Positions 4,416 to 21,520 are shown, numbered from the stretch's first letter. The stretch: DNA of 64,000 nucleotides from Acidimicrobiales bacterium (GCA_022452035.1 JAKURV010000005.1:19651-83650), one strand, 5' to 3'. Notes: generated by a model not told the origin, from the letters alone. Numbers and translations are program-made.

Positions 4416-5339
4416 TCAGGCGCCGCTTGGGACCCGCCTGGTCCGACTGGCCATCCGGTTCTCGAAGGTCTCGGCCTGGGCAATCAGGGCCCCCGGAATG
4501 GCCAGGATCTTCTCTTGCAGTTCCTCGCCCCGGGGGTCAAGGCCCTCGATGGACCCCACCTTCCAGTGGCGGAGCAGCGGTTGGACCACCTGTTCGGCAT
4601 GGATCCGTAGGTTGTAGATCCCGGCCCGGGCAATGGCCACGGCCCGTCGGCTGAAGTTCGGAATCACGGTCCCGGGCATGTTGAAGTCGGACAGGACCCG
4701 GTGGAGCGCCCCCAGCACGAAGGTGGGCGCCTGGCGCAGCATGGCCGTGGTCACTCCCCGGTAGAACATGAAGTGGTGGTTCTCGTCGGCGGCCACTCGG
4801 GTCATGACCTCGTGGGCCACCGGACAGTCGGCCTTCACCCCAGTGTTGCGGTGGCTGATACGGGTGGCCAGTTCCTGGGCCGACGTGTAGGCGAAGACCT
4901 CCACAGGGCACGGGGAGTCGTAACGCCAACCGCGGGTCACCGTGGCCAACCGCTCGTCCTCCAGTTGGGCAGGATCGCAGTTCCGGGTGGCCAGCAGGTA
5001 GTTACGGATGGCAATGGAGTGCTGGCCCTCCTCAGCCGTCCAGAGGCGGGACCATTCGGCCATCGGCGAGTCCTCGGGGAAGCTGCCAGCGATCTTGGCG
5101 TGGTAGTAGGGGAGGTTGTCCTCGGTCAGCAGGTTCAACTGCAGAGCGGTACGGACCTCCGGGGACAACGTGGCCTGGGACTCCTCCCACGGTTCGTCGC
5201 GGAAACTCCGGCCCAGTTCCCAAGGAACAACGTCGTGGGCATACCAATGCTGTCGGCGCTCCCGGTGCTCGGCCATGAGCCGGGAGATCTCCGGCTCGAC
5301 GGACGAGACCAACTCGAACGATTCGGTGGTGGCGGTCAC
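4416..5339 (-). CDS. desA: acyl-ACP desaturase (soluble di-iron, DesA-like)
   Basis: Di-iron ligand motifs TAEEGQH and ADENHH. Overall similarity to mycobacterial DesA1/DesA2-type proteins is from memory. Confidence 0.8.
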   Translation of the reverse strand: MTATTESFELVSSVEPEISRLMAEHRERRQHWYAHDVVPWELGRSFRDEPWEESQATLSPEVRTALQLNLLTEDNLPYYHAKIAGSFPEDSPMAEWSRLWTAEEGQHSIAIRNYLLATRNCDPAQLEDERLATVTRGWRYDSPCPVEVFAYTSAQELATRISHRNTGVKADCPVAHEVMTRVAADENHHFMFYRGVTTAMLRQAPTFVLGALHRVLSDFNMPGTVIPNFSRRAVAIARAGIYNLRIHAEQVVQPLLRHWKVGSIEGLDPRGEELQEKILAIPGALIAQAETFENRMASRTRRVPSGA

Positions 5340-8259: not shown

Positions 8260-9476
8260 AGGAAGACCTCCCGCTCGAACCCGTCCACCAACTGCTCTAC
8301 CCGGCCCATCTCCTCCATGATCTCCCGAGGTTCGAGCTCACCGATCAGGTGGCCTGTGTCGTCCACCACGGCAATCGGGAGCCCCCGACCGGCCGCCGCG
8401 TAGTTGTCACTGAACCGTGCCTCAATGGTGGTGGAGTCGAAGTCTGACCGCAGCACCAAGCCCAGGTCGGTCGTCCCGTGGGCGATGGCCGTGGCGGCGT
8501 CGGTCATAGCCAGCAGGCCGGTAGGCCGGCCGTCGGCGTCGACCACAAAGGCACCTTGCCGATCGCCCATGGCGTCGATGCTTTCTGTGAGGGTCCACGA
8601 CTCGTTGAGGATCACCGGGGTCTCCATGATCTTGCCCACGTCAATGACCCGGCCCTGGTCCACGTCCTGGACGAACTCAGCCACGTATCCGTCTGCCGGT
8701 TCGGTGAGGATCTCCTCAGGCGTCCCGATCTGGATCACCTTGCCGTCGCGGAGGATGCAGACCCGGTTGCCGACGCGCAGGGCTTCGTTCAGGTCGTGGG
8801 TGATGAACACGATCGTCTTGTGGAGCTTGTCCTGGATCGCCATCAGCTCATCCTGCATCTGGCGCCGGATCAGCGGATCCAGTGCGCTGAAGGCCTCATC
8901 CATGAGCAGGATCTCCGGGTTGGAGCACAGCGCCCTAGCAAGACCCACGCGCTGCTGCATGCCTCCGGACAGTTGGCGGGTGGCGTTGAAGGCATAGGCC
9001 TCGAGCCCGACCATGGCCAGCGCCTCGATGGCCGCCTCGTGGCGTTCTTTCTTATCCACACCCTGGACCTTCAGGCCGTAGGCGGTGTTGTCAATGACAT
9101 TACGGTGGGGGAAGAGGGCAAAGTGCTGGAAGACCATGGCTGTCTTCTCACGGCGGAAGGCCTGGAGGGCGGCGCCCCGGAGTTGTTGGACGTCTGTTCC
9201 CTCGACCAGGACACGACCATGGGTTACGTCGTGCAGTTTGTTCACCGTTCGAATGGCCGTCGACTTGCCCGATCCGGACAGTCCCATGACCACGAAGATC
9301 TCACCCTTCTGTACCTCGAAGGAGATGTCACGCATCCCGACGACGTGACCGGTCTGCCGTTGGACCTCGTCCTTGCCGACGTCCGCCGAGCAGAGGTCAA
9401 ACGCCCGCCCACGCGGGTTCGGGCCGAAGATCTTGTAAACGTTCTCCAGTGCAATGATCGGCTCGGAGTCCGACAT
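8256..9476 (-). CDS. proV: glycine betaine/L-proline ABC transporter ATP-binding protein with C-terminal CBS pair
   Basis: Walker A GLSGSGKST, signature LSGGMQQR, Walker B ILLMDEAFSALD, and a C-terminal CBS-like region. Start set at ATG 9476 (MSDSEPIIALENVYKIFG) with AAGGAGAGG upstream. Confidence 0.9.
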   Translation of the reverse strand: MSDSEPIIALENVYKIFGPNPRGRAFDLCSADVGKDEVQRQTGHVVGMRDISFEVQKGEIFVVMGLSGSGKSTAIRTVNKLHDVTHGRVLVEGTDVQQLRGAALQAFRREKTAMVFQHFALFPHRNVIDNTAYGLKVQGVDKKERHEAAIEALAMVGLEAYAFNATRQLSGGMQQRVGLARALCSNPEILLMDEAFSALDPLIRRQMQDELMAIQDKLHKTIVFITHDLNEALRVGNRVCILRDGKVIQIGTPEEILTEPADGYVAEFVQDVDQGRVIDVGKIMETPVILNESWTLTESIDAMGDRQGAFVVDADGRPTGLLAMTDAATAIAHGTTDLGLVLRSDFDSTTIEARFSDNYAAAGRGLPIAVVDDTGHLIGELEPREIMEEMGRVEQLVDGFEREVFL

Positions 9477-10359: not shown

Positions 10360-11220
10360 TTAGGACTGAGCGTGTTGCCAGCCGAACCGTCCCTTGATGC
10401 ACAGGTGGCCGTGAGTCACCGAGTGGTCGGCCGGTGACGTCACCTTCACAATCCGCTCATCCTGGACGTGCAGTTCCAGGTTGCAGCCCACCCCGCAGAA
10501 CGAACACACCGTGGTGGTGACCTCCTGGTCTTCCTCGTTCCACGTGCCGTCCAGGCGCATGTCGTGCTCGGTCTTGAAAGCCAGCGCCCCCGTTGGACAG
10601 ACCCCGATGCAGTTCCCGCAGTAGACGCAGGCCGAATCGGGAAGGGTCACGTCGTGCTCGGTGGAGATGTGGGCCCCGAAACCCCGACCGGCTGTGGCGA
10701 TGGCGTAGGTGTGCTGGGCGTCGTCGCCACAGGCCTCAACGCACTTGTAGCAGAGGATGCACCGTTCGTAGTCCCGAACGTAGAGGTCGTCTTGGACCTT
10801 CACCGGCTGGGCCACCGTCGCGATCTCGGACCGTTCTCCCATCCGCTCCGGCCGGGCCCCATAGTGCTCCATCCAGGCGTGGACCTCGGGGTCAGCCCGG
10901 TCCATCTCGACCGACGAGGCCAGCAGCTCGTAGACCATCCGCCGACTGGTGTGTACCCGCTCGGAGTCAGTGGACACCACCATCCCGTCTTCCACGGGCC
11001 GGGAACAGGACGGAACCAGAACCCGGGACCCCTCGACCTCGACTACGCAGACCCGGCAAACGTTGACCGGTGTCAAGTTCTCGGCCCAGCACAGCGTTGG
11101 TGTGTCGATGCCCTGGCGGCGACAGGCGTCCAGGATGGTGGACCCCTCCGGAACACGAACTGTCGCCCCGTCGATGGTGGCCTCGACCATGGTGGTCACA
11201 GAAACCGCCGTCTCGTTCAT
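10360..11220 (-). CDS. formate dehydrogenase alpha subunit, N-terminal Fe-S module only (2Fe-2S + two 4Fe-4S + MopB-type 4Fe-4S)
   Basis: NuoG-like CRRQGIDTPTLC...CRVC, then CILCYKCVEAC and CVYCGNCIGVCP, then CSFCGVGCNLE...HLCIKGRFGW. The protein ends where the molybdopterin domain normally continues. Confidence 0.85.
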   Translation of the reverse strand: MNETAVSVTTMVEATIDGATVRVPEGSTILDACRRQGIDTPTLCWAENLTPVNVCRVCVVEVEGSRVLVPSCSRPVEDGMVVSTDSERVHTSRRMVYELLASSVEMDRADPEVHAWMEHYGARPERMGERSEIATVAQPVKVQDDLYVRDYERCILCYKCVEACGDDAQHTYAIATAGRGFGAHISTEHDVTLPDSACVYCGNCIGVCPTGALAFKTEHDMRLDGTWNEEDQEVTTTVCSFCGVGCNLELHVQDERIVKVTSPADHSVTHGHLCIKGRFGWQHAQS

Positions 11221-13040
11221 CGAGATCCTCCGCCGCCGATGTCGACCAGCAGGCCGAGGTCCAGAGCGCTGAGCACAGCACCTGAGGCCGTCTGACCCAA
11301 ACCGCAGATCGAGGCGTCCTTCATGACGGCCGCTAGGTCGTCCAGCAGGTCCCGTTCGTCATCCACCGTGGACCCCCGTCCCAGCCGGACCAGCACCTCC
11401 TCCTGGCGCACCGTCCCCACCCGGCAGGGAACGCACTGGCCACACGACTCGTCACGGAAGAATTCGGCGATGCGCCGTACGGTGTCGACCAGGTCGTCAG
11501 TCTCATCGAACACCATGATCACGCCTGAGCCCAGCGACACGCCTGCGTCCCGGGTGGCCTCCAACGTCAGCGGCAGGTCCAGCGAGTCCGGTCCCACGAA
11601 GCTACCGGCGGCCCCACCCAGCATGACGGTCCGCAGGCTCCGCCCCTCTGGCAGGCCTCCGGCCAGGTCGATCAGGTCCCGCAGGGTGGCCCCAAACTCC
11701 ACCTCGTAGGTGCCGGGGCGGACTACCCGTCCGCTGAGGCAGAACAACTTTGTTCCTGGTGACCGCTCCGTACCCTCGGCGGCGTAGGCCGCTCCGCCGT
11801 CCAAAACAATGGGCAGCACGTTGACCAGTGTTTCCACGTTGTTGATGGCCGTGGGCTCACCGAACAGGCCGTGCGTGGTGGGAAACGGCGGCTTGTTCCG
11901 AGGCTCGCCCCGGAACCCCTCAAGCGAATTAAACAGCGCCGTCTCCTCGCCACAGATGTAGGCACCGGCCCCGCTGCGCAGCGAGATGTCGAAGCGACGT
12001 CCCGAGCCGGAGACGTCGTCGCCCAGGAGCCCTGCAGCCCGGGCCTCGGTGATGGCATGGCCCAGACGGTCGGTGGCCACCGGGTACTCACCCCGGATGT
12101 ACAACCAGCCCTGCTCGGCCCCGACGGCCAGGCCGGCCACCGTCATAGCCTCGATGAGGGAGAACGGGTCACCCTCCATGACAACCCGGTCCTTAAAGGT
12201 TCCGGGCTCAGACTCATCGGCATTGCACACCAGGTGGCGGGGACGCCCCTCCTGGTCGGCCACGCCGCGCCACTTGATGCCGGTCGGGAAGGCAGCACCA
12301 CCCCGACCGGACAACCCGGCCGTGGTCACCTCGGCAATCACCTGGTCCGATCCCATGGTCAACGAGGCCTCCAGGGCCCGGTAGCCGCCGTGGGCCCGGT
12401 AGTCCTCGAGGCTGGTCGGATCGACGACACCGACACGGGCCAGGAGGCGTAGGCCGGGATCCCCAGCCTGGGGGAGGGTGACCGACGGCGTGGAGGCGCC
12501 CGATCCGATGGCTGCCGCGACCTGTGCGACACCAACCGGTCCGCCATCCACCGAAGCGACGGTCACGTCTTCGTTCCCGGTCCGCTGGACCATCACCGCT
12601 GGTCCCCGCTCGCACTGACCTAGGCACGGGCTTGCCTTGACGTGGTGCCCGTCGGCGACCAGGTCGTCGATCAGCTCCAACGCTCCGACGATCCGGCAGG
12701 CCACGTCGTCGCACACGTGCACAGTGTCGACGGCAGCCGGCGGCTCGTGGGTGAACAGGTGGTAGAAGGTGGCCACGCCGTATCCCTCAGCAGGCGGCAC
12801 CTCCAGTTGCGCGCAGGCGTAGTCCAAACCCCCCGGGCTAATCCAACCGACCGACCGCTGGAGAGCGTGGAGGGCCGGAAGCAATAGGTGGCGACGCTCC
12901 CGAGTGCGTTCGTGGCCTCCATAAACCAACCGTTCGGACTCCCAGAGGACCACCGGACCAAGGCTGGCAATCGCCGCGTCGACCCCTGCCCTCTCGGCGT
13001 CAGTCGCCTCCTCTGTCGCCCCAAAGTGGAGGTCAGGCAC
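11217..13040 (-). CDS. NAD-reducing formate dehydrogenase diaphorase subunit (NuoE-like 2Fe-2S domain fused to NuoF-like FMN/NADH/4Fe-4S domain)
   Basis: N-terminal VCDDVACRIVG...SPCLGQCERGPAVMV (NuoE type). Then GAGAYICGEETALFNSLEG (FMN site) and ESCGQCVPCRVG (N3 cluster). Confidence 0.85.
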   Translation of the reverse strand: MPDLHFGATEEATDAERAGVDAAIASLGPVVLWESERLVYGGHERTRERRHLLLPALHALQRSVGWISPGGLDYACAQLEVPPAEGYGVATFYHLFTHEPPAAVDTVHVCDDVACRIVGALELIDDLVADGHHVKASPCLGQCERGPAVMVQRTGNEDVTVASVDGGPVGVAQVAAAIGSGASTPSVTLPQAGDPGLRLLARVGVVDPTSLEDYRAHGGYRALEASLTMGSDQVIAEVTTAGLSGRGGAAFPTGIKWRGVADQEGRPRHLVCNADESEPGTFKDRVVMEGDPFSLIEAMTVAGLAVGAEQGWLYIRGEYPVATDRLGHAITEARAAGLLGDDVSGSGRRFDISLRSGAGAYICGEETALFNSLEGFRGEPRNKPPFPTTHGLFGEPTAINNVETLVNVLPIVLDGGAAYAAEGTERSPGTKLFCLSGRVVRPGTYEVEFGATLRDLIDLAGGLPEGRSLRTVMLGGAAGSFVGPDSLDLPLTLEATRDAGVSLGSGVIMVFDETDDLVDTVRRIAEFFRDESCGQCVPCRVGTVRQEEVLVRLGRGSTVDDERDLLDDLAAVMKDASICGLGQTASGAVLSALDLGLLVDIGGGGSR

Positions 13041-14937
13041 CGGTGGCTACCCCGACGAGCTTGTCGACCCGCACGGCCGCCGCCTTGAACTCGGCCGTGC
13101 CCGACTTCGGGTCAACCGCGTCGCTGGTGATCTGGTTGATGTCGGTCGTCTCCGGGAAGTGGAAGGTGGTGTGGCACAGGCCTACGGCAAGGTCCCGGTC
13201 GATGCCGATGGTCATCTCGATGGCGCCCCGGCGGGACGACACGTTCACCCGCTCCCCCTCGACCACCCCCAGATCGGCGGCGTCGGCCGGCGAGATCTCG
13301 AGCGCCTCCCCCGTGCGAATGGGCGAGGAGTACTTGTCGGTCTGCACGCCCGTGTTGTACGAGTCCAGGGCGCGCACGGTGGTTAGACGCAACGGGAACT
13401 CATCGGAAAGCTCGTCCAGCGGACGGCGATCCTCGACACACGAAAACGGCGCCAGTCGTCCACCGGCCGGCCGCTCCCAGAGGCGGCCGTGTAGGAATGG
13501 ACTCCCGGGATGGCCTTCGGTCGGGCACGGCCACTGGATGCCACCCTCCGCCTCGAGGCGCTCCCAGGACATGCCGGCGTGCATGGGTGAAACGGTCCGG
13601 AGTTCCTCCCAAAGTTCCTCGGCCGTGGGGTTCCCCCAGCCTCCGTCACCCATCTGAGCCGCCAGGTCGTTGATGATCCCGATCTCCTGGCGAGCTTCAC
13701 CGGGTGGCGGTATGGCGGCCCGCATCCGCTGGACACGACGCTCGCTGTTGGTGACCGTACCGTCCGACTCCGCCCATCCCAGGGCCGCCGGCAGGACAAC
13801 GTCGGCCATCTGGGCCGTACGCGTCAGGAACACGTCCTGCACGACCAGCACATCGAGTCGCTCAAGCATGGCCCTGGCGTGCTTGACGTCGGCCTCCGAG
13901 TCGGCCGGGTTCTCGCCGATGCAGTAGACGGCCTTGAGCTCATCTCGCTCCATGGCCTCGAACATCTCGGTGAGGTTCCAGCCGTTGGTAGCGGGAATCT
14001 CACAGTCCCAGGCCCCTTCGAACTTGGCCCGCACCTCGTCATCTTCCACGTCCTGGAAGCCGGTGAGCTTGTTGGGCAGCGCACCCATGTCACCACCGCC
14101 CTGCACGTTGTTCTGCCCGCGAAGGGGCACCAGACCTGAACCCCTCCGGCCCACGTGCCCGGTGAGCAGGGCAAGGTTGCAGAGGGCCTGAACGTTGTCC
14201 ACCCCGGTGTGGTGCTCGGTGATTCCCAGGGTCCAACAGATCTGGGCCGTCGGGGCCGAGGCGTATCCGTGGGCCAGGTCCCGGATGGCCTCGGTAGGCA
14301 CGCCGGTAACCTCCGCAGTCCGCTTCAGGGTCCACGACTCCACGAAGGCCACGAACTCCTCGTAGCCGGTGGTGGCGTGCCGGATGAACTCGTCGTCGGT
14401 GAGGCCAGCGTGGATGATCTCGCGTGCCACCCCGTGGGCCAGGGCGATGTCGGTCCCGACGTCGAGGCCTAGCCAGGAGTCGGTGAACTTGGCCGTACCG
14501 GTCCGCCGGGGGTCGACGGTCCACGACCGGGCACCGTTGTCGATGCCCTTTAGGACGTGGTGGAAGAAAATGGGGTGCGCGTTGCGCGCGTTGGTCCCCC
14601 ACATGACGATGGCGTCGGTCGTCTCGATCTCCTCGTATGACGAGGTACCTCCGCCTGCTCCGAAGACCGTCGCCAGACCGACGACGCTAGGAGCGTGTCA
14701 AGTTCGATTGCAGCTGTCGATGTTGTTCGAGCCGATGACCCGTCGGGCGAACCGCTGGGCGGCGTAGTTCACCTCGTTGGTGGTCTTCGAGCAGCTGAAC
14801 ATGCCGAAGGCCGAGGGACCGTGGGTGTCGACCACGGAGCCGAACCCGGAGGCGGCCCGCTCGAGGGCCTCCTCCCAGGTCGCCTCGCGCAGCACCCCGT
14901 CCTCGCGGACCATCGGTGTAGTCAGACGCTGGCTCAT
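13033..14937 (-). CDS. fdhA: formate dehydrogenase alpha subunit, molybdopterin catalytic module; selenocysteine encoded by in-frame TGA at 14698-14700
   Basis: Two same-frame track ORFs (14698..14937 and 13033..14604) join through one TGA. The read-through is NNIDSCNRT-U-HAPSVVGLATVFGAGGGTSS, collinear with the FdhF Sec site (CARV-U-HGPSVAGL). ATG 14937 is preceded by GGGGGA. Confidence 0.8.
14657..14694 (-). promoter_or_regulatory. candidate bacterial SECIS element
   Basis: The mRNA just 3' of the UGA can form a lower helix GCUCC/GGAGC and an upper helix CGUCGUC/GGCGACG (one G.U), capped by a GGUCU loop. The upper helix starts 12 nt after the UGA. Confidence 0.6.
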
Positions 14938-14980
14938 GTGTCCCCCATCATTGGAGTCCGGCCGGAATCCCTCAGTCGGC

Positions 14981-15064: not shown

Positions 15065-15853
15065 TCAGGAGCCCTGCCAGTGGGGGTCCCGCTTCTCGAC
15101 GAAAGCTTGCAGTCCCTCCTCCGCATCCTCCGAAGCCAGCATGCGTTCGTAGGCCTCCAGATCGCCCGACCGGAGGTGGGCAAACGCCTCTTCCAGGGAG
15201 AGGTGGCGGGTGGCCCGGTCGATGGCCAACACCGCCTCCACGGCCAGCGGGGCGGAAGCAGAAATCCGACCGGCTAACTCGAGAGCCGCCGAGCGGAGGT
15301 CGGCCACCGGCACCACCCGATTGACGAGGCCCCACCGTTCGGCCTCCCGGGCATCCAGGCGTCGCCCGCCTATGAGCACCTCGGTGGCCACCGCTGGCGG
15401 CAAAATACGGGGCAGCCGGACCGCTCCCGTGTCGGGGATGATTCCCAAGCCGGCTTCGGGAAGAAAAAACTCGGCGTGCTCGGCGGCCACCACGAACTCG
15501 GCGGCCAGGGCGATCTCGAAGCCGCCACCTACGGCTAGGCCGTTCACTGCACACACCACCGGTTTGTTCCTTCGGGGTAACTCGCCAAAGCCGCCGAAGC
15601 CGCCTTCGCCGTAGTCGGCCTCGAACTCCTCGCCGTCCGCCGCCGCGCCGAGGTCCCAACCAGCCGAGAAGAACCGGTCACCGGCCCCCGTGAACACGGC
15701 GACCCTCAGCGACGGGTCATCCCTGAACCCGGCGAACACTTGTCCCAGCTCCCGGCTCGTGGCGGCGTCGATGGCGTTGGCCTTCGGACGGTCTAGGACC
15801 ACCTCCAGTACCCCGCCGTTTACCGTGGTCCGGACCGCCGCCCCGTCGCTCAT
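15065..15853 (-). CDS. enoyl-CoA hydratase (CaiD/BcoD-like; candidate crotonobetainyl-CoA hydratase)
   Basis: VVLDRPKANAID...VFTGAGDRFFSAGWDL...VNGLAVGGGFEIALA. The specific role is inferred from context with carnitine genes. Confidence 0.75.
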   Translation of the reverse strand: MSDGAAVRTTVNGGVLEVVLDRPKANAIDAATSRELGQVFAGFRDDPSLRVAVFTGAGDRFFSAGWDLGAAADGEEFEADYGEGGFGGFGELPRRNKPVVCAVNGLAVGGGFEIALAAEFVVAAEHAEFFLPEAGLGIIPDTGAVRLPRILPPAVATEVLIGGRRLDAREAERWGLVNRVVPVADLRSAALELAGRISASAPLAVEAVLAIDRATRHLSLEEAFAHLRSGDLEAYERMLASEDAEEGLQAFVEKRDPHWQGS

Positions 15854-17904
15854 CGTTGCCCCTCCGGGTCCTCGCGTTCGACCAGCACGTCAACCACCGT
15901 GGCACCCTCCGCTCCGGCAATCAACGGGTTGCACTCCACCTCAACCAGGCCGTCTGGCGCCACGGCCATCTGAGCTACTCCGAGGACGGCATCCACAACG
16001 GCCTCCACGTCGGCTCCGGGACGTCCCCGATAGCCGGCCAGCAGTGGCCAGACCGACAGGCCCTGAAGGGCGGAACGTACGTCCTCCGCGGTGACTGGAA
16101 GCAGCAGGCTGCGGGTGTCCTCCAGGATCTCCACCAGGGTTCCGCCTGCGCCGACGGTGAGCAGCCAGCCCACCGGATCCTCCCGGCGTACCGAGACCAG
16201 CAGTTCGACGACCGCGTCGCCGACCTGGCGCTCGACGATCACCGTCTCGGCGGCCGACGCCCCGGCGATCCGACGGGCCACCTCGTCGACCGCACCGGCG
16301 TCATTGAGGTCCAGCGCCACCGCGTCGGCTTCCGTCTTGTGAGCCAGTCCGGCGGCCTTGACCACCACTGGGTACCCCAGTCGGTCGGCCGCCTCGCCAG
16401 CCCCGTCGACCGACACCACCTCCCACCGGGGTACCGGAACCCCAGCATCCTCTAGCAGTCTCCTGGCCTCGTCTCCCATCATGCGACGCGTCGGTCCCGG
16501 CGGGCGCCCTGGTGGTAGGAGCGGCGGATGGTCAGGCCGGGCGCCCCACTGGGCGGCCGCCTCCAGGACCACGAGCGCCGCCTCAATACCCCGCACGGCT
16601 ACCAGCCCGGCGTCGGTCGCCGCTTCCTCGACGACCACCGGCAGGTTCTCGGCCAGGGAGGCAGCTACCACGCCTGGTGTCCTGGTCGATACGCAGGCCT
16701 CGGCGAACGCGTCCAGGGTCGGCCACCAGGTGGCGTCGTCCAGTCCGGCGCCGGGGAAGTCCAAGATGAGGAGGGCTGCGTCGACCGGCCCGTCCAGCGC
16801 TGAGGTAAAGGTGCCGGTCAGGCGGTCCCGGTCTCCCCAGATGAAGGTGTGGTAGTCGAAAGGATTGGACACCGACACCAGGTCCGTTGCCTCGCCTTCG
16901 CCCAGGGCGGCGCGGATCCTCTCGGCCTGGGCGTCGGTGAAGGGGGGAAGGTTCAGGTCGAGGCCGGCACAGCTATCGGCGACAATCGACGCCTCGCCGC
17001 CCGAACAGCTGAGGCTGACGATCCGGTTCCCCGGCAGTCCCCCGACGCGGTCCAGGACCAGGAGGGTGTCGAGTAGCTCTGCAAGGGACCGGACGCGGCG
17101 GACGCCCAGGCGGTCGAAGAGGGCCCCGTAAGCGGCGTCAGCTCCGACCAGCGACGAGGTGTGGGAGGCGGCGATCTCGGCGGCCCGGGGTGAGGAGCCG
17201 GTCTTGAGGGCGACGATTGGGACGCCCGCAGCCGACGCTCGGCGGCAGGCCTCCTCAAAGCGGGCCACGTCGTGCAAGGCCTCCACGTGGAGGCCCACGG
17301 CTGAAACCGCTGGGTCGCCCAGCAGGTCCTCCAGGCACTCTTCGATTCCCACGTCGGCCTGGTTTCCCAGGGTCAGGAGGTGGCTGATGGACAGGGGCCG
17401 AGTCTGCAATGTGAGGTTGAGGCCGATGTTCCCGCTCTGTGTGACTATGGCAACGCCCCGTTCCACTCGGGAGAGGCCCTGCTGGTCTGGCCACAGGGCG
17501 GCACCCACCGTGGCCGACACCGTGCCGTAGCAGTTAGGACCAACCACCGGCATACCGTCCGCTGCGGCCAGCAGATCCTGCTGTAACGCCCGGCCGTCGT
17601 CCCCTGCCTCGGCGAACCCCGACGCGTAGCAGACAGCGGCACCTGCTCCCATGGCTGCCAACCGTCCCACCACGTCGACGGTGGCATAGCGATTGACGGC
17701 CACCAGGGCGGCGTCGGGAACACCGGGAAGATCGTCCAAGGTCGGCAGGCACGGAATTCCGTCCAGCAAGGCCCGGGTCGGGTGCACCGGCCACAGGTCG
17801 CCGTCGAAGCCCAGACGACGGCACTGTTCGAGGGCCAGTTCGGCCGGTCGACCGCCCACCACGGCCAGAGACCGTGGGGACAGGAGGCGGCCCAGGCGTC
17901 CCAT
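15850..17904 (-). CDS. acyl-CoA synthetase (NDP/ADP-forming; CoA-binding + succinyl-CoA-synthetase-like + ATP-grasp domains)
   Basis: 684 aa. The N-terminal LLSPRSLAVVGG...VAVN CoA-binding fold and the C-terminal GYPVVVKAAGLAHKTEADAV ATP-grasp region match this family. Confidence 0.75.
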   Translation of the reverse strand: MGRLGRLLSPRSLAVVGGRPAELALEQCRRLGFDGDLWPVHPTRALLDGIPCLPTLDDLPGVPDAALVAVNRYATVDVVGRLAAMGAGAAVCYASGFAEAGDDGRALQQDLLAAADGMPVVGPNCYGTVSATVGAALWPDQQGLSRVERGVAIVTQSGNIGLNLTLQTRPLSISHLLTLGNQADVGIEECLEDLLGDPAVSAVGLHVEALHDVARFEEACRRASAAGVPIVALKTGSSPRAAEIAASHTSSLVGADAAYGALFDRLGVRRVRSLAELLDTLLVLDRVGGLPGNRIVSLSCSGGEASIVADSCAGLDLNLPPFTDAQAERIRAALGEGEATDLVSVSNPFDYHTFIWGDRDRLTGTFTSALDGPVDAALLILDFPGAGLDDATWWPTLDAFAEACVSTRTPGVVAASLAENLPVVVEEAATDAGLVAVRGIEAALVVLEAAAQWGARPDHPPLLPPGRPPGPTRRMMGDEARRLLEDAGVPVPRWEVVSVDGAGEAADRLGYPVVVKAAGLAHKTEADAVALDLNDAGAVDEVARRIAGASAAETVIVERQVGDAVVELLVSVRREDPVGWLLTVGAGGTLVEILEDTRSLLLPVTAEDVRSALQGLSVWPLLAGYRGRPGADVEAVVDAVLGVAQMAVAPDGLVEVECNPLIAGAEGATVVDVLVEREDPEGQR

Positions 17905-17924
17905 GGCTGGCCCTCCCCGTCCGG

Positions 17925-19085
17925 TCAGCCGCCCAGCGGGCGGAGCATCTCACGGCTCACGATGTGCCGCTGGATCTCACTGGTGCCGTCCCAGATCCGG
18001 TCCACCCGGGCATCGCGCCAGATCCGCTCCAGGGGAAGCTCGTCCATCAGGCCCATACCGCCCAGGATCTGGATGGCCTCGTCGGACACGAACTGGATCA
18101 TCTCGGTGGACGAGAGCTTGGCCATCGCTGCGTCGCCGTCCGACATGACACCGCGGTCCATGAGCCAGGCCGCCCGGTAGGTCATCAGCTCGGCCTCCAC
18201 CATGCGGGTCCGCATGTCGGCCAGCTTGAACGAGACCCCCTGAAACTTGCCGATCTTCTGGCCGAACTGTTCCCGTGAAGCCGCCCATTCCAGGGCCACG
18301 GACAGGGCCCGGTCGGCCCGACCCAGGCAGACGGCGGCCACCTGGAGCCGGGTGGCCCCCAGCCACTCGTTGGCCACCTCGAAGCCCCGGTGCTCCTCCC
18401 CGAGGACCTTGGAAGCCGGCACCCGACAGTCGTCAAAGTTCAGGATCAGGTTGTGGTAGCCGCGGTTGGAGACCGAGTTGTAGCCCGGCGCCACCTCCAG
18501 GCCCGGGGTGTCGTGGTCGACCAGGAACGAGGTGATGAGCTTTTTGGGGCCCCGAGGGGTGTCCTCTTCCCCGGTGGCCGCGAACAGGATCGTGTAGTCG
18601 GCTAGGTCGGCGTGGCTGATGAAGTGCTTGGTGCCGTTGACGACGTAGTCGTCGCCATCCCGGACGGCCCTGCAGGACATGCCCCGGACGTCCGAACCGG
18701 CTCCCGGCTCACTCATGGCCAGACAGTCCACCCGCTCGCCCCGGATGGTTGGTAGTAGGTATTCCTCGACTTGGTCCCCAGTGCAGGCCAGGAGGATGTT
18801 GGAAGGACGGGCCACCACGTAGTGCAGGGCGTACTGAGTCCAGCCGAACGCCCGGTCCACCAGAGCCATGGTCAGGTTGTCAAGCCCCCCGCCACCAAAC
18901 TCGGCCGGCATGTTGGCTGCGTAGATCCCCGCCTCCAGGGAGCGGTCTCGGATCCGGGCCACCAGGTCGGGCGACACGTCGCCTTGTCGCTCCACCTCCT
19001 CCTCATGGGGAACTAACTCGCGTTCGACGAAGGTCCGGACGGTGTCCACCACCATCTCCTGCTCGTTGGTCAGGGCGAAGTCCAT
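17925..19085 (-). CDS. acyl-CoA dehydrogenase (CaiA/BcoC-like by context)
   Basis: 386 aa ACAD (MSEPGAGSDVRG, VNGTKHFIS, RIWDGTSEIQRHIV). Confidence 0.8.
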   Translation of the reverse strand: MDFALTNEQEMVVDTVRTFVERELVPHEEEVERQGDVSPDLVARIRDRSLEAGIYAANMPAEFGGGGLDNLTMALVDRAFGWTQYALHYVVARPSNILLACTGDQVEEYLLPTIRGERVDCLAMSEPGAGSDVRGMSCRAVRDGDDYVVNGTKHFISHADLADYTILFAATGEEDTPRGPKKLITSFLVDHDTPGLEVAPGYNSVSNRGYHNLILNFDDCRVPASKVLGEEHRGFEVANEWLGATRLQVAAVCLGRADRALSVALEWAASREQFGQKIGKFQGVSFKLADMRTRMVEAELMTYRAAWLMDRGVMSDGDAAMAKLSSTEMIQFVSDEAIQILGGMGLMDELPLERIWRDARVDRIWDGTSEIQRHIVSREMLRPLGG

Positions 19086-19112
19086 GGTCAGCTCCGAGGA
19101 TCGTCGATCGGA

Positions 19113-20597
19113 TCAGGTCAGGCCCATGACCTGACCCACCTGGGGCGGGACGGGCAGATCGGCGTGGGCTTTGGCGATGGCGGCCAGCGCAGCCGCCGGA
19201 CCGGGAAGAAGGGGAGCCGTAGATCCGGCCCTGGTGTCCACGTGCAGCAGCATCTGCTCGGTGGTGCACAGCAGCTCACCGGTGGTGGCGTGCTCCATGG
19301 CATGGAAGAAGTGGAGCCGCTTGGCGTCCACGCCTAAAACCTGGGTGGTGAACCGGAGTGGATCGGCCAGTGAGGCCTCTCGCACGTAATTCAGGTGGGT
19401 CTCCACAGTGAAGAAAGTGTGGCCGGCCGACCGGTAGTCCTCGTCGACGCCCACATATCGGAAGAGCTTGTCGCTGGCCCACCCAAAAGCGGTCAGGAAC
19501 GCCCACTCAGACATGTGGCCGTTGTAGTCCACCCAGTCAGGCTCGACGGTCGTCTCGTACAGGGTCAGCGGGGCGGCCACCGGGTCACCCGCCGACCACT
19601 GGGCCGGGACGCCGGCCTCGTGGATTCGGGCCTCCCGTTCGGCCACCAGCCGTCCGGCCCCCAGGCCCAGCGGACGCAACGATCGCATGACGTTGACCAG
19701 GTAGTCGTCGCGGAGCCGCTCGAGCTCAGCCATGGTCCGGCCCTCGGCCTGCTCCTCGCAGCCGGCGGCCATCACCTCGATGAGGTCCTCGGTCAAGTCC
19801 GGGGCCTCCAGCTTCGTCCACGGCAACTTCAGGGCCGGGCCGAACTGGCCGAGCATGTGGCGCATGCCCTCTTCACCGCCCGCCAGGTGGAAGGTGAGGT
19901 TGGTCCCCATGCCGGCCCACCTCAGGCCCGGGCCGTAGTGCACCGCCTCGTCCAGCTCTCGCGTGGTGGCCACACCGTCGTTGACCAGGTGCAGGATCTC
20001 CCGCCACAGGGCCTCCTGGAGCCGGTCCGAGAGGTAGCCCTCGATCTCGGTTCGAACGAGCAGCGGATGCATGACCAGGTCGTCGTAGTGGGTCAGGGCC
20101 GCATCCACCGCTTCGGTCGATGTCTGGCGACCGGCTACCACCTCAACTAGCGGCAGCAGGTACACGGGGTTGAACGGGTGTCCGATGAGCACCCGCTCTG
20201 GGTGTCGGCAGCCCTCCTGGAGCCGGGTGGGTAGGAGCCCAGACGAACTGGAAGCGATGACCACCTCGGGGCCGGCTACCCCGGCCAGGGCCTGCAGCAG
20301 GGGACGCTTGACGTCCTCGTCTTCCGGGGCGCTCTCCTGGATCCAGTCGACCCGCCCCGCTAGGTCATCGGCCGTCGCCGCCCACGCGAGCTGGCTCCGG
20401 TCGGCCCCCGGGAACAACCCCAGCCTGGTGGCCGACGGCCAGGCCCGATCCACGGTGGCCCGTAGTCGTTCCTCAGCACCCGGTGCCGGGTCCCAGGCCA
20501 CCACGGCGTGGCCCCGGGCCAGCGCCCGGACAGCCCAGCCGGCCCCGATAACACCGGTGCCCACCACTCCGATGGTGCGCGGTGCGGTTCCTGCCAC
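19113..20597 (-). CDS. lcdH: L-carnitine 3-dehydrogenase fused to a C-terminal hotdog thioesterase domain
   Basis: IGVVGTGVIGAGWAVRALARGHAVVAWDPAPGAE matches the carnitine dehydrogenase N-terminus from memory. The C-terminal ~150 aa (VDYNGHMSEW...FFTVETHLNYVREA) form a 4HBT-type thioesterase. Confidence 0.8.
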   Translation of the reverse strand: MAGTAPRTIGVVGTGVIGAGWAVRALARGHAVVAWDPAPGAEERLRATVDRAWPSATRLGLFPGADRSQLAWAATADDLAGRVDWIQESAPEDEDVKRPLLQALAGVAGPEVVIASSSSGLLPTRLQEGCRHPERVLIGHPFNPVYLLPLVEVVAGRQTSTEAVDAALTHYDDLVMHPLLVRTEIEGYLSDRLQEALWREILHLVNDGVATTRELDEAVHYGPGLRWAGMGTNLTFHLAGGEEGMRHMLGQFGPALKLPWTKLEAPDLTEDLIEVMAAGCEEQAEGRTMAELERLRDDYLVNVMRSLRPLGLGAGRLVAEREARIHEAGVPAQWSAGDPVAAPLTLYETTVEPDWVDYNGHMSEWAFLTAFGWASDKLFRYVGVDEDYRSAGHTFFTVETHLNYVREASLADPLRFTTQVLGVDAKRLHFFHAMEHATTGELLCTTEQMLLHVDTRAGSTAPLLPGPAAALAAIAKAHADLPVPPQVGQVMGLT

Positions 20598-20626
20598 AAT
20601 CCCTCCCCGGGCGGTCGGTACCTGAC

Positions 20627-21520
20627 TCAGCCGAGCTTCAAGGTTTGGCGGGCGTCGGTCGTGGTCTGGATCCGGGCACCCATCAGTTCCACGATCCGGA
20701 CCGCCTTCTCGACCAACTGGGCGTTGGTGGCCAGCACCCCCCGCTCTAGGTAGAGGTTGTCCTCCAAGCCCACGCGCACGTGGCCGCCCAGCATCACCGA
20801 CTGGGCCGCCATCGGCATCTGCATGGCCCCGAGACCGAATGAGGTGAACTCGGCCTCGTCGGGAAGTCGGTTGACCATGGCCTGCAGGATCCCCACGTCC
20901 AGTGGCGTGCCGTAGGGGATGGACAGGCAGAGTTGGATCCAGTACGGGGCGTCGATGAGACCCTCAGCGATCATGGTCTCGGCGAACCACAGGTTGCCGG
21001 TGTCAAAGACCTCCAGCTCAGGTCGCACCCCGAGTTCGCGGACCCGCTGGGCCATGATGCGCAGCATCGATGGGGTCGAGACGTAGACCTCGTTGTCATC
21101 ACCGAAGTTCAGTGACCCGCAGTCCATGGAGCAGATGTCGGGCCGGATGGCCTCCACATGGGCCAGTCGCTCGGCGCCCCCGACCAGGTCGGTCCCTGGC
21201 TGCCAGGACATCGGGTCGTCATCGGGCCCGACGTTGAGGTCCCCCCCCATCCCAGCGGTCAGGTTGACCACGACGTCATCGTTCTTCTCCCGGATGCGCT
21301 CTACCACCTCCTGGTAGTAGGCCACGGTCCGGGTCCCCCGGCCGGTCTCCGGCTCACGGACGTGGCAGTGCACGATGGCTGCACCAGCCGAGGCGGCATC
21401 CAGGGCCGAGTTGGCAATCTGGGCCGGGGTCACTGGAACGTGCTCGCTGCGTCCGGCGGTGTCGCCGGCACCGGTTACGGCACACGAGATGATCACGTCG
21501 CGGTTCATGGATCGGGTCAT
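20627..21520 (-). CDS. beta-keto acid cleavage enzyme (BKACE/DUF849); candidate dehydrocarnitine cleavage enzyme
   Basis: VIISCAVTGAGDT...VPVTPAQIA...AAIVHCHVREPETG, typical of the 3-keto-5-aminohexanoate cleavage family. It lies adjacent to the carnitine dehydrogenase gene. Confidence 0.8.
   Translation of the reverse strand: MTRSMNRDVIISCAVTGAGDTAGRSEHVPVTPAQIANSALDAASAGAAIVHCHVREPETGRGTRTVAYYQEVVERIREKNDDVVVNLTAGMGGDLNVGPDDDPMSWQPGTDLVGGAERLAHVEAIRPDICSMDCGSLNFGDDNEVYVSTPSMLRIMAQRVRELGVRPELEVFDTGNLWFAETMIAEGLIDAPYWIQLCLSIPYGTPLDVGILQAMVNRLPDEAEFTSFGLGAMQMPMAAQSVMLGGHVRVGLEDNLYLERGVLATNAQLVEKAVRIVELMGARIQTTTDARQTLKLG

Follow-up and report, generated by a model that had tools for sequence, protein, structure and literature searches.

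An in-frame UGA with a conserved downstream hairpin in a formate dehydrogenase gene of an Acidimicrobiales bacterium points to selenocysteine at the active site

The alpha subunit of formate dehydrogenase (FDH) is the most widespread bacterial selenoprotein, reported from 822 organisms (PMC5029168). About 40% of mycobacterial genomes encode an FDH with selenocysteine (Sec), in which a stem-loop selenocysteine insertion sequence (SECIS) lies just past the UGA; these genes are missed by gene callers because UGA is taken as the main stop codon (PMC13449736). The characterised Fds-type FDHs are enzymes with cysteine (Cys) at molybdenum (PMC13397495). Here we describe an FDH gene in a 64,000-nucleotide stretch from an Acidimicrobiales bacterium (GCA_022452035.1, JAKURV010000005.1:19651-83650; hereafter the window). 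The gene, here called fdhA, occupies 13033..14937 on the minus strand and contains one in-frame UGA. From its sequence and that of its relatives, it very probably encodes the catalytic subunit of a cytoplasmic, probably NAD+-linked FDH of the Mo- or W-bis-pyranopterin type, with Sec as residue 80.

The read-through coding sequence comprises 1905 nt and 634 residues, that is 79 residues, Sec80 and a further 554 residues. Its ATG (14937..14935) lies 3 nt downstream of a Shine-Dalgarno-like GGGGGA read from the sequence at 14941..14946 on the minus strand. In the ORF listing and the translation, a single TGA (14700..14698) parts a 79-residue open reading frame (ORF; 14937..14698) from a same-frame continuation that runs to 13033, and the read-through product is ...IGSNNIDSCNRT-*-HAPSVVGLATVFGAGGGTSSYEE..., with SNNIDSCNRT as the stretch before the TGA. 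A preliminary description of this DNA had set out the same two pieces and the same read-through, and had further placed the UGA on the catalytic Sec of E. coli FdhF. The alignment bears this out. With Cys put in place of Sec, as in all our protein searches, BLASTP against FdhF (translated from NC_000913) gave 36% identity over 636 residues (E = 9e-139), and the TGA aligned with U140, His81 (codon 14695..14697) with His141, and Arg273 (codon 14119..14121; PLRGQNNVQG) with Arg333. The Pfam Molybdopterin domain (PF00384) spans the TGA, with profile positions 1-80 in the 79-residue piece and 99-352 in the next, and is followed by Molydop_binding (PF01568). The best solved-structure matches of the catalytic subunit were all formate dehydrogenases (7bkb_D, 7qv7_S, 1aa6 and 6tg9_A). 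The tryptic peptide spanning residue 80 is predicted to be T-U-HAPSVVGLATVFGAGGGTSSYEEIETTDAIVMWGTNAR. Because TGA is the stop of 39 of the 47 long ORFs in the window, a reassigned code was rejected. Three other in-frame TGAs with coding signal on both sides (33156, 27771 and 19113) proved to be places where one gene ends and its neighbour begins in the same frame.

A scan of species-representative genomes yielded 80 related loci, almost all labelled Acidimicrobiia, and 79 of these could be scored at the codon because they included upstream sequence. The closest (98%) came from a Microtrichales metagenome-assembled genome (MAG) from Station ALOHA. TGA was found at the homologous codon in 79 of 79 scorable loci (62-98% protein identity), with TGC or TGT replacing it in none. 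The population to which the window belongs is represented by independent assemblies from ten samples, and 10 of 10 carry TGA as well. The N-terminal 79-residue piece was 57-97% identical across loci, in the same frame and directly abutting the TGA; the upstream frame was open for at least 70 codons wherever the sequence sufficed, and most related loci had an ATG 76-91 codons upstream of the TGA. An upstream fusion in L062 (open frame of 758 codons) and L051 (277 codons) was considered and rejected, as no extra domains were present. The 81 closest database homologues (74-98% identity) were all gene calls of 503-547 residues that started past the TGA and covered 79-85% of the query. Full-length homologues of 633-679 residues were found at 61-64% identity in Streptomyces, Nonomuraea and related genera, and 36 full-length actinomycete homologues carry Cys at the Sec position.

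Three loci outside this pattern of codon or label were noted. A 2183-bp farmland contig (L087, ENA ERZ1761205) carries an fdhA orthologue at 170-2107 in which codon 82 is CGA (Arg) and the SECIS hairpin is intact; the CGA stems from a sequencing error or from a recent mutation that inactivates the gene. Two MAGs placed in other phyla, labelled Verrucomicrobiales (L024, 68% identity) and Planctomycetaceae (L073, 63%), contain typical Acidimicrobiia-type Sec fdhA operons, for which mis-binning is more likely than horizontal transfer.

The nucleotides that follow the UGA form a predicted bacterial SECIS element at 14657..14700 on the minus strand, corresponding to nt 1-44 counted from the U of the UGA and supported by folding, RNAalifold, pair counts and synonymous constraint. 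RNAfold reproduced the structure given in the preliminary description, with a lower helix GCUCC/GGAGC, an upper helix CGUCGUC/GGCGACG and an apical GGUCU loop. The RNAalifold consensus, predicted independently, contained the same upper helix. The conserved upper stem-loop lies at 14669..14685, where nt 16-21 pair with nt 27-32, and its invariant GGUCU loop (nt 22-26) at 14679..14675. The upper helix had been described as 7 bp long; six of these pairs are conserved, whereas the seventh, the outer C15-G33, is unpaired in 48 of 77 distinct sequences. A tentative lower helix joins the 5' arm GCUCC (nt 7-11, 14690..14694) to GGAGC (nt 40-44, 14661..14657).

Folding alone proves nothing for a SECIS element, and the real support is comparative. 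We aligned the UGA and the following 57 nt from 80 sequences, counting pairs on the 77 distinct ones, and built a codon alignment of 75 full genes. Of the 462 pair-by-sequence cells in the 6-bp upper helix, three were unpaired. For the whole proposed structure 91% of cells were paired, compared with 28-68% when the 3' partners were slid by 1-3 columns, and none of 500 column shuffles reached the observed covariation score. In the pair C18-G30 (pair 30/42), both bases are synonymous third positions: it is CG in 59 sequences, GC in 17, UA in one and unpaired in none, and at least three double changes are required on a neighbour-joining tree. A further change from G-C to A-U occurs at the adjacent pair in L074. 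Codon usage in the loop is constrained in the same way. Gly+7 is GGT in 75 of 75 genes, compared with 22% of Gly codons gene-wide, and Leu+8 is CTG in 75 of 75; these two are the only fully fixed codons in the gene among amino acids with at least four synonymous codons, and codons +4 to +10 show the lowest synonymous diversity among 237 windows of the gene. The compensatory and loop-codon features are absent from three Cys-type orthologues that were fetched, which have TGC or TGT at the site and GGG/GGC/GGC and CTC/CTC/CTT at the two loop codons. Thus, the hairpin is under selection beyond what protein coding needs.

The codons just before the UGA (14701-14706) tend to be rare forms, with Thr-1 as ACT in 56 of 75 genes (ACT makes up 11% of Thr codons gene-wide) and Arg-2 as CGA in 44 of 75, possibly because the 5' context of the recoded UGA is itself under selection. 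In addition, the conserved features define a lineage-specific SECIS consensus of UGA, N12 and a 6-bp helix with a GGUCU loop that is usable to seek further Acidimicrobiia selenoproteins. A candidate second selenoprotein was noted near the fdh operon in two Acidimicrobiia MAGs (L043 8570-9439, TGA at 9158; L052 838-1704, TGA at 1426). It would be a membrane protein of ~289 residues with a weak, sub-threshold DsbD_TM/CcdA-like Pfam match and the motif FFSPCSFPLL ... GFS-[TGA]-TGPLLAGL, followed by a hairpin whose GGUCU loop is spaced from the UGA just as it is in fdhA; no homologue of this protein was found in the window.

Several observations weigh against reading fdhA as a selenoprotein gene. 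The energy of the hairpin is ordinary for a sequence of 66.5% GC, with 118 of 200 shuffled sequences equalling or beating it (z = 0.35), and in a 161-nt context it is likewise unremarkable (z = 0.24); thermodynamic significance was rejected, and stability is uninformative in this GC-rich sequence. Four of the six upper pairs and four of the five lower pairs are partly fixed by the peptides VVGLAT and AP..GA, which leaves a few synonymous sites to carry the independent RNA-level signal; compensatory events number only about 3-4. Because the Ala-Pro...Gly-Ala codons dictate them, the four lower-helix pairs carry no independent information. U9-A42, the only lower pair free to vary, is U-A in 46 of 77 sequences and unpaired in 28, and rare codons are enriched at both of its sites (GCT in 58 of 75, GGA in 62 of 75). 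In E. coli, the bulged U17 matters for SelB binding. Neither RNAfold nor RNAalifold predicts such a bulge in the upper helix here; the loop bases G23 and U24 are both there and never vary. No Rfam SECIS family was detected at the gathering threshold, nor when the local region was searched with E values up to 10, and only chance hits occurred; such a miss is to be expected given how poorly Rfam covers bacterial SECIS elements (bioRxiv 10.64898/2026.04.03.716425). The 64-kb window also contains no homologue of fdhD, the sulfurtransferase/chaperone gene; downstream of the operon, where the Cys-type operons have fdhD, it carries a methyltransferase gene on the opposite strand.

The Sec machinery itself is likewise missing from the window and from the related loci searched. 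ARAGORN found no tRNA-Sec in the 64-kb window, which has no tRNA of any kind, nor in 60 related loci, and tblastn with the E. coli proteins gave no SelA, SelB or SelD match in the window or in roughly 1.3 Mb of related loci. All 80 loci are free of sel genes within 10 kb of the fdh operon. Since the SelA, SelB and SelD queries gave no matches, the machinery is not linked to the fdh locus. It is documented in the lineage: Ilumatobacter coccineus, I. nonamiensis and Ca. Microthrix parvicella are positive for SelD, SelA and SelB (PMC5029168, Table S1), with 15, 10 and 7 selenoproteins, respectively (Table S2). According to NCBI taxonomy, Ilumatobacter and Microthrix belong to Acidimicrobiia/Acidimicrobiales, the order of most of the related loci, and several of these loci are labelled Ilumatobacteraceae or Microthrix. 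Furthermore, selC, selA, selD and a divergent selB are present in all 84 complete Actinomarina genomes (bioRxiv 10.64898/2026.04.03.716425).

Decoding of the UGA mainly as an amino acid other than Sec, that is as Cys or Trp by a near-cognate or mischarged tRNA, with the hairpin only stimulating read-through, would fit the missing sel genes and tRNA-Sec in the window and the related loci searched. It would also fit the C that follows the UGA at this site, a weak context for termination, and the existence of presumably functional Cys-type orthologues. However, the loop agrees with that of the E. coli fdhF SECIS in both sequence and spacing, and cultured relatives possess SelA, SelB and SelD together with multiple selenoproteins. 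Moreover, were Cys adequate, one change from TGA to TGC or TGT would remove the cost of recoding, and this change is seen in 0 of 79 genomes. We therefore give non-Sec decoding only a slim chance. That the UGA simply terminates, with the enzyme built from the 79-residue peptide and a separately initiated C-terminal polypeptide, is scarcely credible. The family does tolerate a split already, since its Fe-S half is a separate gene, and an ATG-initiated ORF of 523 residues has been called; but this ORF begins 32 codons past the TGA, at the first ATG, inside the conserved Molybdopterin domain. As the called start points vary among homologues (503-547 residues), there is no conserved restart. A two-piece enzyme would also lack the catalytic ligand residue, and it leaves the conserved hairpin without explanation.

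A pseudogene, or a TGA called in error for a true TGC or TGT during sequencing or assembly, could account for the two fragments given by the ENA gene callers, and the CGA in the soil contig L087 indicates that the codon can mutate. Yet TGA is carried by 79 of 79 related genomes across the class and by all ten independent assemblies, and on this ground both a pseudogene and a sequencing error are ruled out for practical purposes. In addition, the two flanks lie in one frame under purifying selection, and RNA-level constraint begins immediately downstream of the codon. Taken together, the FdhF alignment, the invariant TGA, the compensatory changes and the synonymous constraint support the view of the preliminary description that the gene encodes a selenoprotein through a UGA and a downstream hairpin.

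Downstream of fdhA on the minus strand lie two further genes in overlap. A 607-residue NuoE-NuoF fusion (nuoEF, 11217..13040) starts 8 nt within the end of fdhA, and a 286-residue Fe-S subunit (10360..11220) overlaps the nuoEF stop by 4 nt. By Pfam, the fusion contains a thioredoxin-like 2Fe-2S domain, an FMN/NADH-binding 51K domain, SLBB and the NuoF 4Fe-4S domain, and in the PDB it matches the FDH beta subunits 6vw7_B, 6tg9_B and 7e5z_B. The Fe-S subunit contains Fer2_4, NuoG-type ferredoxin domains and a C-terminal Molybdop_Fe4S4 domain (CSFCGVGC...CIKG), and its residues 12-284 align with FdsA 25-303 (6tg9_A). The catalytic subunit starts at about residue 58 of FdhF or residue 307 of FdsA and has no Fe4S4 domain (PF04879) on its own polypeptide; this domain is found instead at the C-terminus of the 286-residue protein two genes downstream. 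Because the catalytic protein is without Fe4S4 and the third gene supplies it, the locus represents an FdsA-type subunit split at the boundary of the Fe4S4 and Mo domains. The Mo half comes first, the NuoE-NuoF fusion lies between, and the Fe-S half, equivalent to the N-terminal part of FdsA, comes last.

This order is kept in nearly all of the 80 Sec-type loci, and it recurs in the Cys-type operons of Nonomuraea, Streptomyces and an Actinomycetes MAG, where fdhD is added downstream and adjoins the operon in all three loci. Among Sec-type loci, fdhD is absent from the closest relatives L001-L007 as well, and is operon-linked in L008-L013, L040, L041, L052, L060, L064, L066 and L072. Neither fdsC nor fdsD was found in the window. 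In eight loci (L037, L042, L046, L056, L059, L061, L063 and L075), 2-3 kb with other ORFs separate fdhA from nuoEF; many of the eight bear the label Ilumatobacteraceae or Ferrithrix. The inserted ORFs are on the opposite strand in L037 and L042, and in all eight the NuoEF match begins only at residue ~61-64. Literature searches returned no paper that describes a split FdsA or treats the Streptomyces locus tags.

The wider neighbourhood was also inspected. Upstream of fdhA, 15065-21520 on the minus strand holds genes of acyl-coenzyme A (acyl-CoA) metabolism, namely an enoyl-CoA hydratase, an ATP-grasp/CoA-ligase protein, an acyl-CoA dehydrogenase, a 3-hydroxyacyl-CoA dehydrogenase-thioesterase fusion and a BKACE enzyme. 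The Cys-type operon of Nonomuraea (L083 1-3569) lies near a thiamine pyrophosphate enzyme, a type III CoA-transferase and a CoA ligase of similar kind. This setting hints at formyl-CoA or oxalyl-CoA as a source of formate. A gene of the acyl-ACP desaturase family (PF03405), a family of O2-dependent enzymes, is located at 4416-5339 on the minus strand and suggests that the host of the predicted Sec-FDH is an aerobe.

From these features the following course of decoding and catalysis can be proposed. With a ribosome at the UGA (14700..14698), the hairpin 12-33 nt downstream would offer its GGUCU loop to SelB-GTP-Sec-tRNASec, which would outcompete release factor 2 and insert Sec. Sec80 would ligate the metal, whether Mo or W, and His81 and Arg273 would complete the formate site. 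If the three products assemble into one enzyme, electrons could exit through the [4Fe-4S] cluster of the separately encoded Fe-S protein (10360..11220) and pass over the remaining clusters to the flavin mononucleotide (FMN) of the NuoE/NuoF fusion (11217..13040) and on to NAD+. The NuoF-like FMN/NADH and NuoE-like 2Fe-2S modules suggest a soluble NAD+-linked FDH, with formate:NAD+ activity predicted from domain content.

The split reading frame has consequences for annotation. The preliminary description had expected automated callers to report two fragments or a pseudogene. This holds for nine ENA metagenome assemblies of the locus (L091-L097, L099 and L100; 784-1023 and 1117-2688), which give 79 and 523 residues, or in one case 79 and 491; it does not hold for NCBI GCA_029577125.1, where the same locus is called as one 634-residue product (L098 784-2688). 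Gene calls that start after the UGA make up 83 of the 120 best database homologues. Surveys of marine Acidimicrobiia metagenomes will therefore undercount or mis-size the enzyme unless UGA recoding is handled.

As a Sec-FDH, the gene is ordinary and has little significance as a discovery: no selenoprotein is more widespread in bacteria than the FDH alpha subunit, the read-through product already stands in an NCBI record, and cultured members of the same order are already listed as Sec users. Only two aspects are mildly unusual, namely a subunit layout that is both split and reordered and a use of Sec that is uniform across Acidimicrobiia. It is possible, though we hold this only tentatively and think it rather unlikely, that they reflect an uncharacterised, Actinomycetota-wide FDH architecture in which an FdsA-like subunit is split and swapped around NuoE-NuoF and which is uniformly Se-dependent in Acidimicrobiia, in contrast to the Cys-Mo state of every characterised Fds-type FDH. 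If this were true, marine Acidimicrobiia, which are abundant and probably aerobic, would need a supply of selenium to oxidise formate, and the enzyme would be a natural test of a proximal [4Fe-4S] domain supplied in trans.

Compared with E. coli FdhF (PDB 1aa6), the gene has its UGA at U140, conserves His141 and Arg333 and shares 36% identity over 636 residues. The two mRNAs both start with UGACACG at the codon and have GGUCUG at nt 22-27, and in both the upper helix begins 11-12 nt after the UGA. They differ in the loop, which is a 5-nt GGUCU here and GGUC closed by an A-U pair in E. coli, and in the bulged U, which is not predicted here. The N-terminal roughly 58 residues of FdhF, its Fe4S4 domain, are missing from the present protein, and the redox partner is a NuoEF-type module and not hydrogenase 3. 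The mycobacterial Sec-FDHs are similar in being actinomycetotal enzymes with a SECIS directly after the UGA, but are of the fdhA/fdoG type with sel genes near the FDH (PMC13449736), whereas none lies within 10 kb here.

In domain content, the operon resembles FdsABG(D) of Rhodobacter capsulatus (6tg9) and Cupriavidus necator (6vw7), which have the same domain set. FdsA 25-303 corresponds to the 286-residue Fe-S protein, FdsA 307-932 to the Mo subunit and the NuoF-like FdsB to the C-terminal part of the 607-residue protein. The counterpart of FdsG would be the N-terminal NuoE-type domain of the latter, as judged from Pfam, FdsG not being among the matches listed. Unlike in Fds, FdsA is here encoded by two genes, of which the one for the C-terminal half leads the operon and the one for the N-terminal half ends it; the NuoE- and NuoF-like parts are fused, and Sec is predicted in place of the Cys of the characterised enzymes. 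The tungsten enzyme FDH1 (Fdh1AB; 7e5z/7vw6), a Cys-type enzyme from Methylorubrum extorquens, shares the fused NuoE/NuoF-like beta subunit combined with an alpha subunit carrying bis-pyranopterin guanine dinucleotide, but its alpha subunit is a single chain of 989-995 residues. The Cys-type orthologues of Streptomyces, Nonomuraea and other Actinomycetes (P0082-P0120; L083-L085) differ by Cys (TGC/TGT) at the site, by loop codons that do not keep the fixed GGT CTG and by an fdhD directly downstream. They are nevertheless like the window's enzyme in their 62-64% identity, their motif CNRT-x-HAPSV and the same three-gene order.

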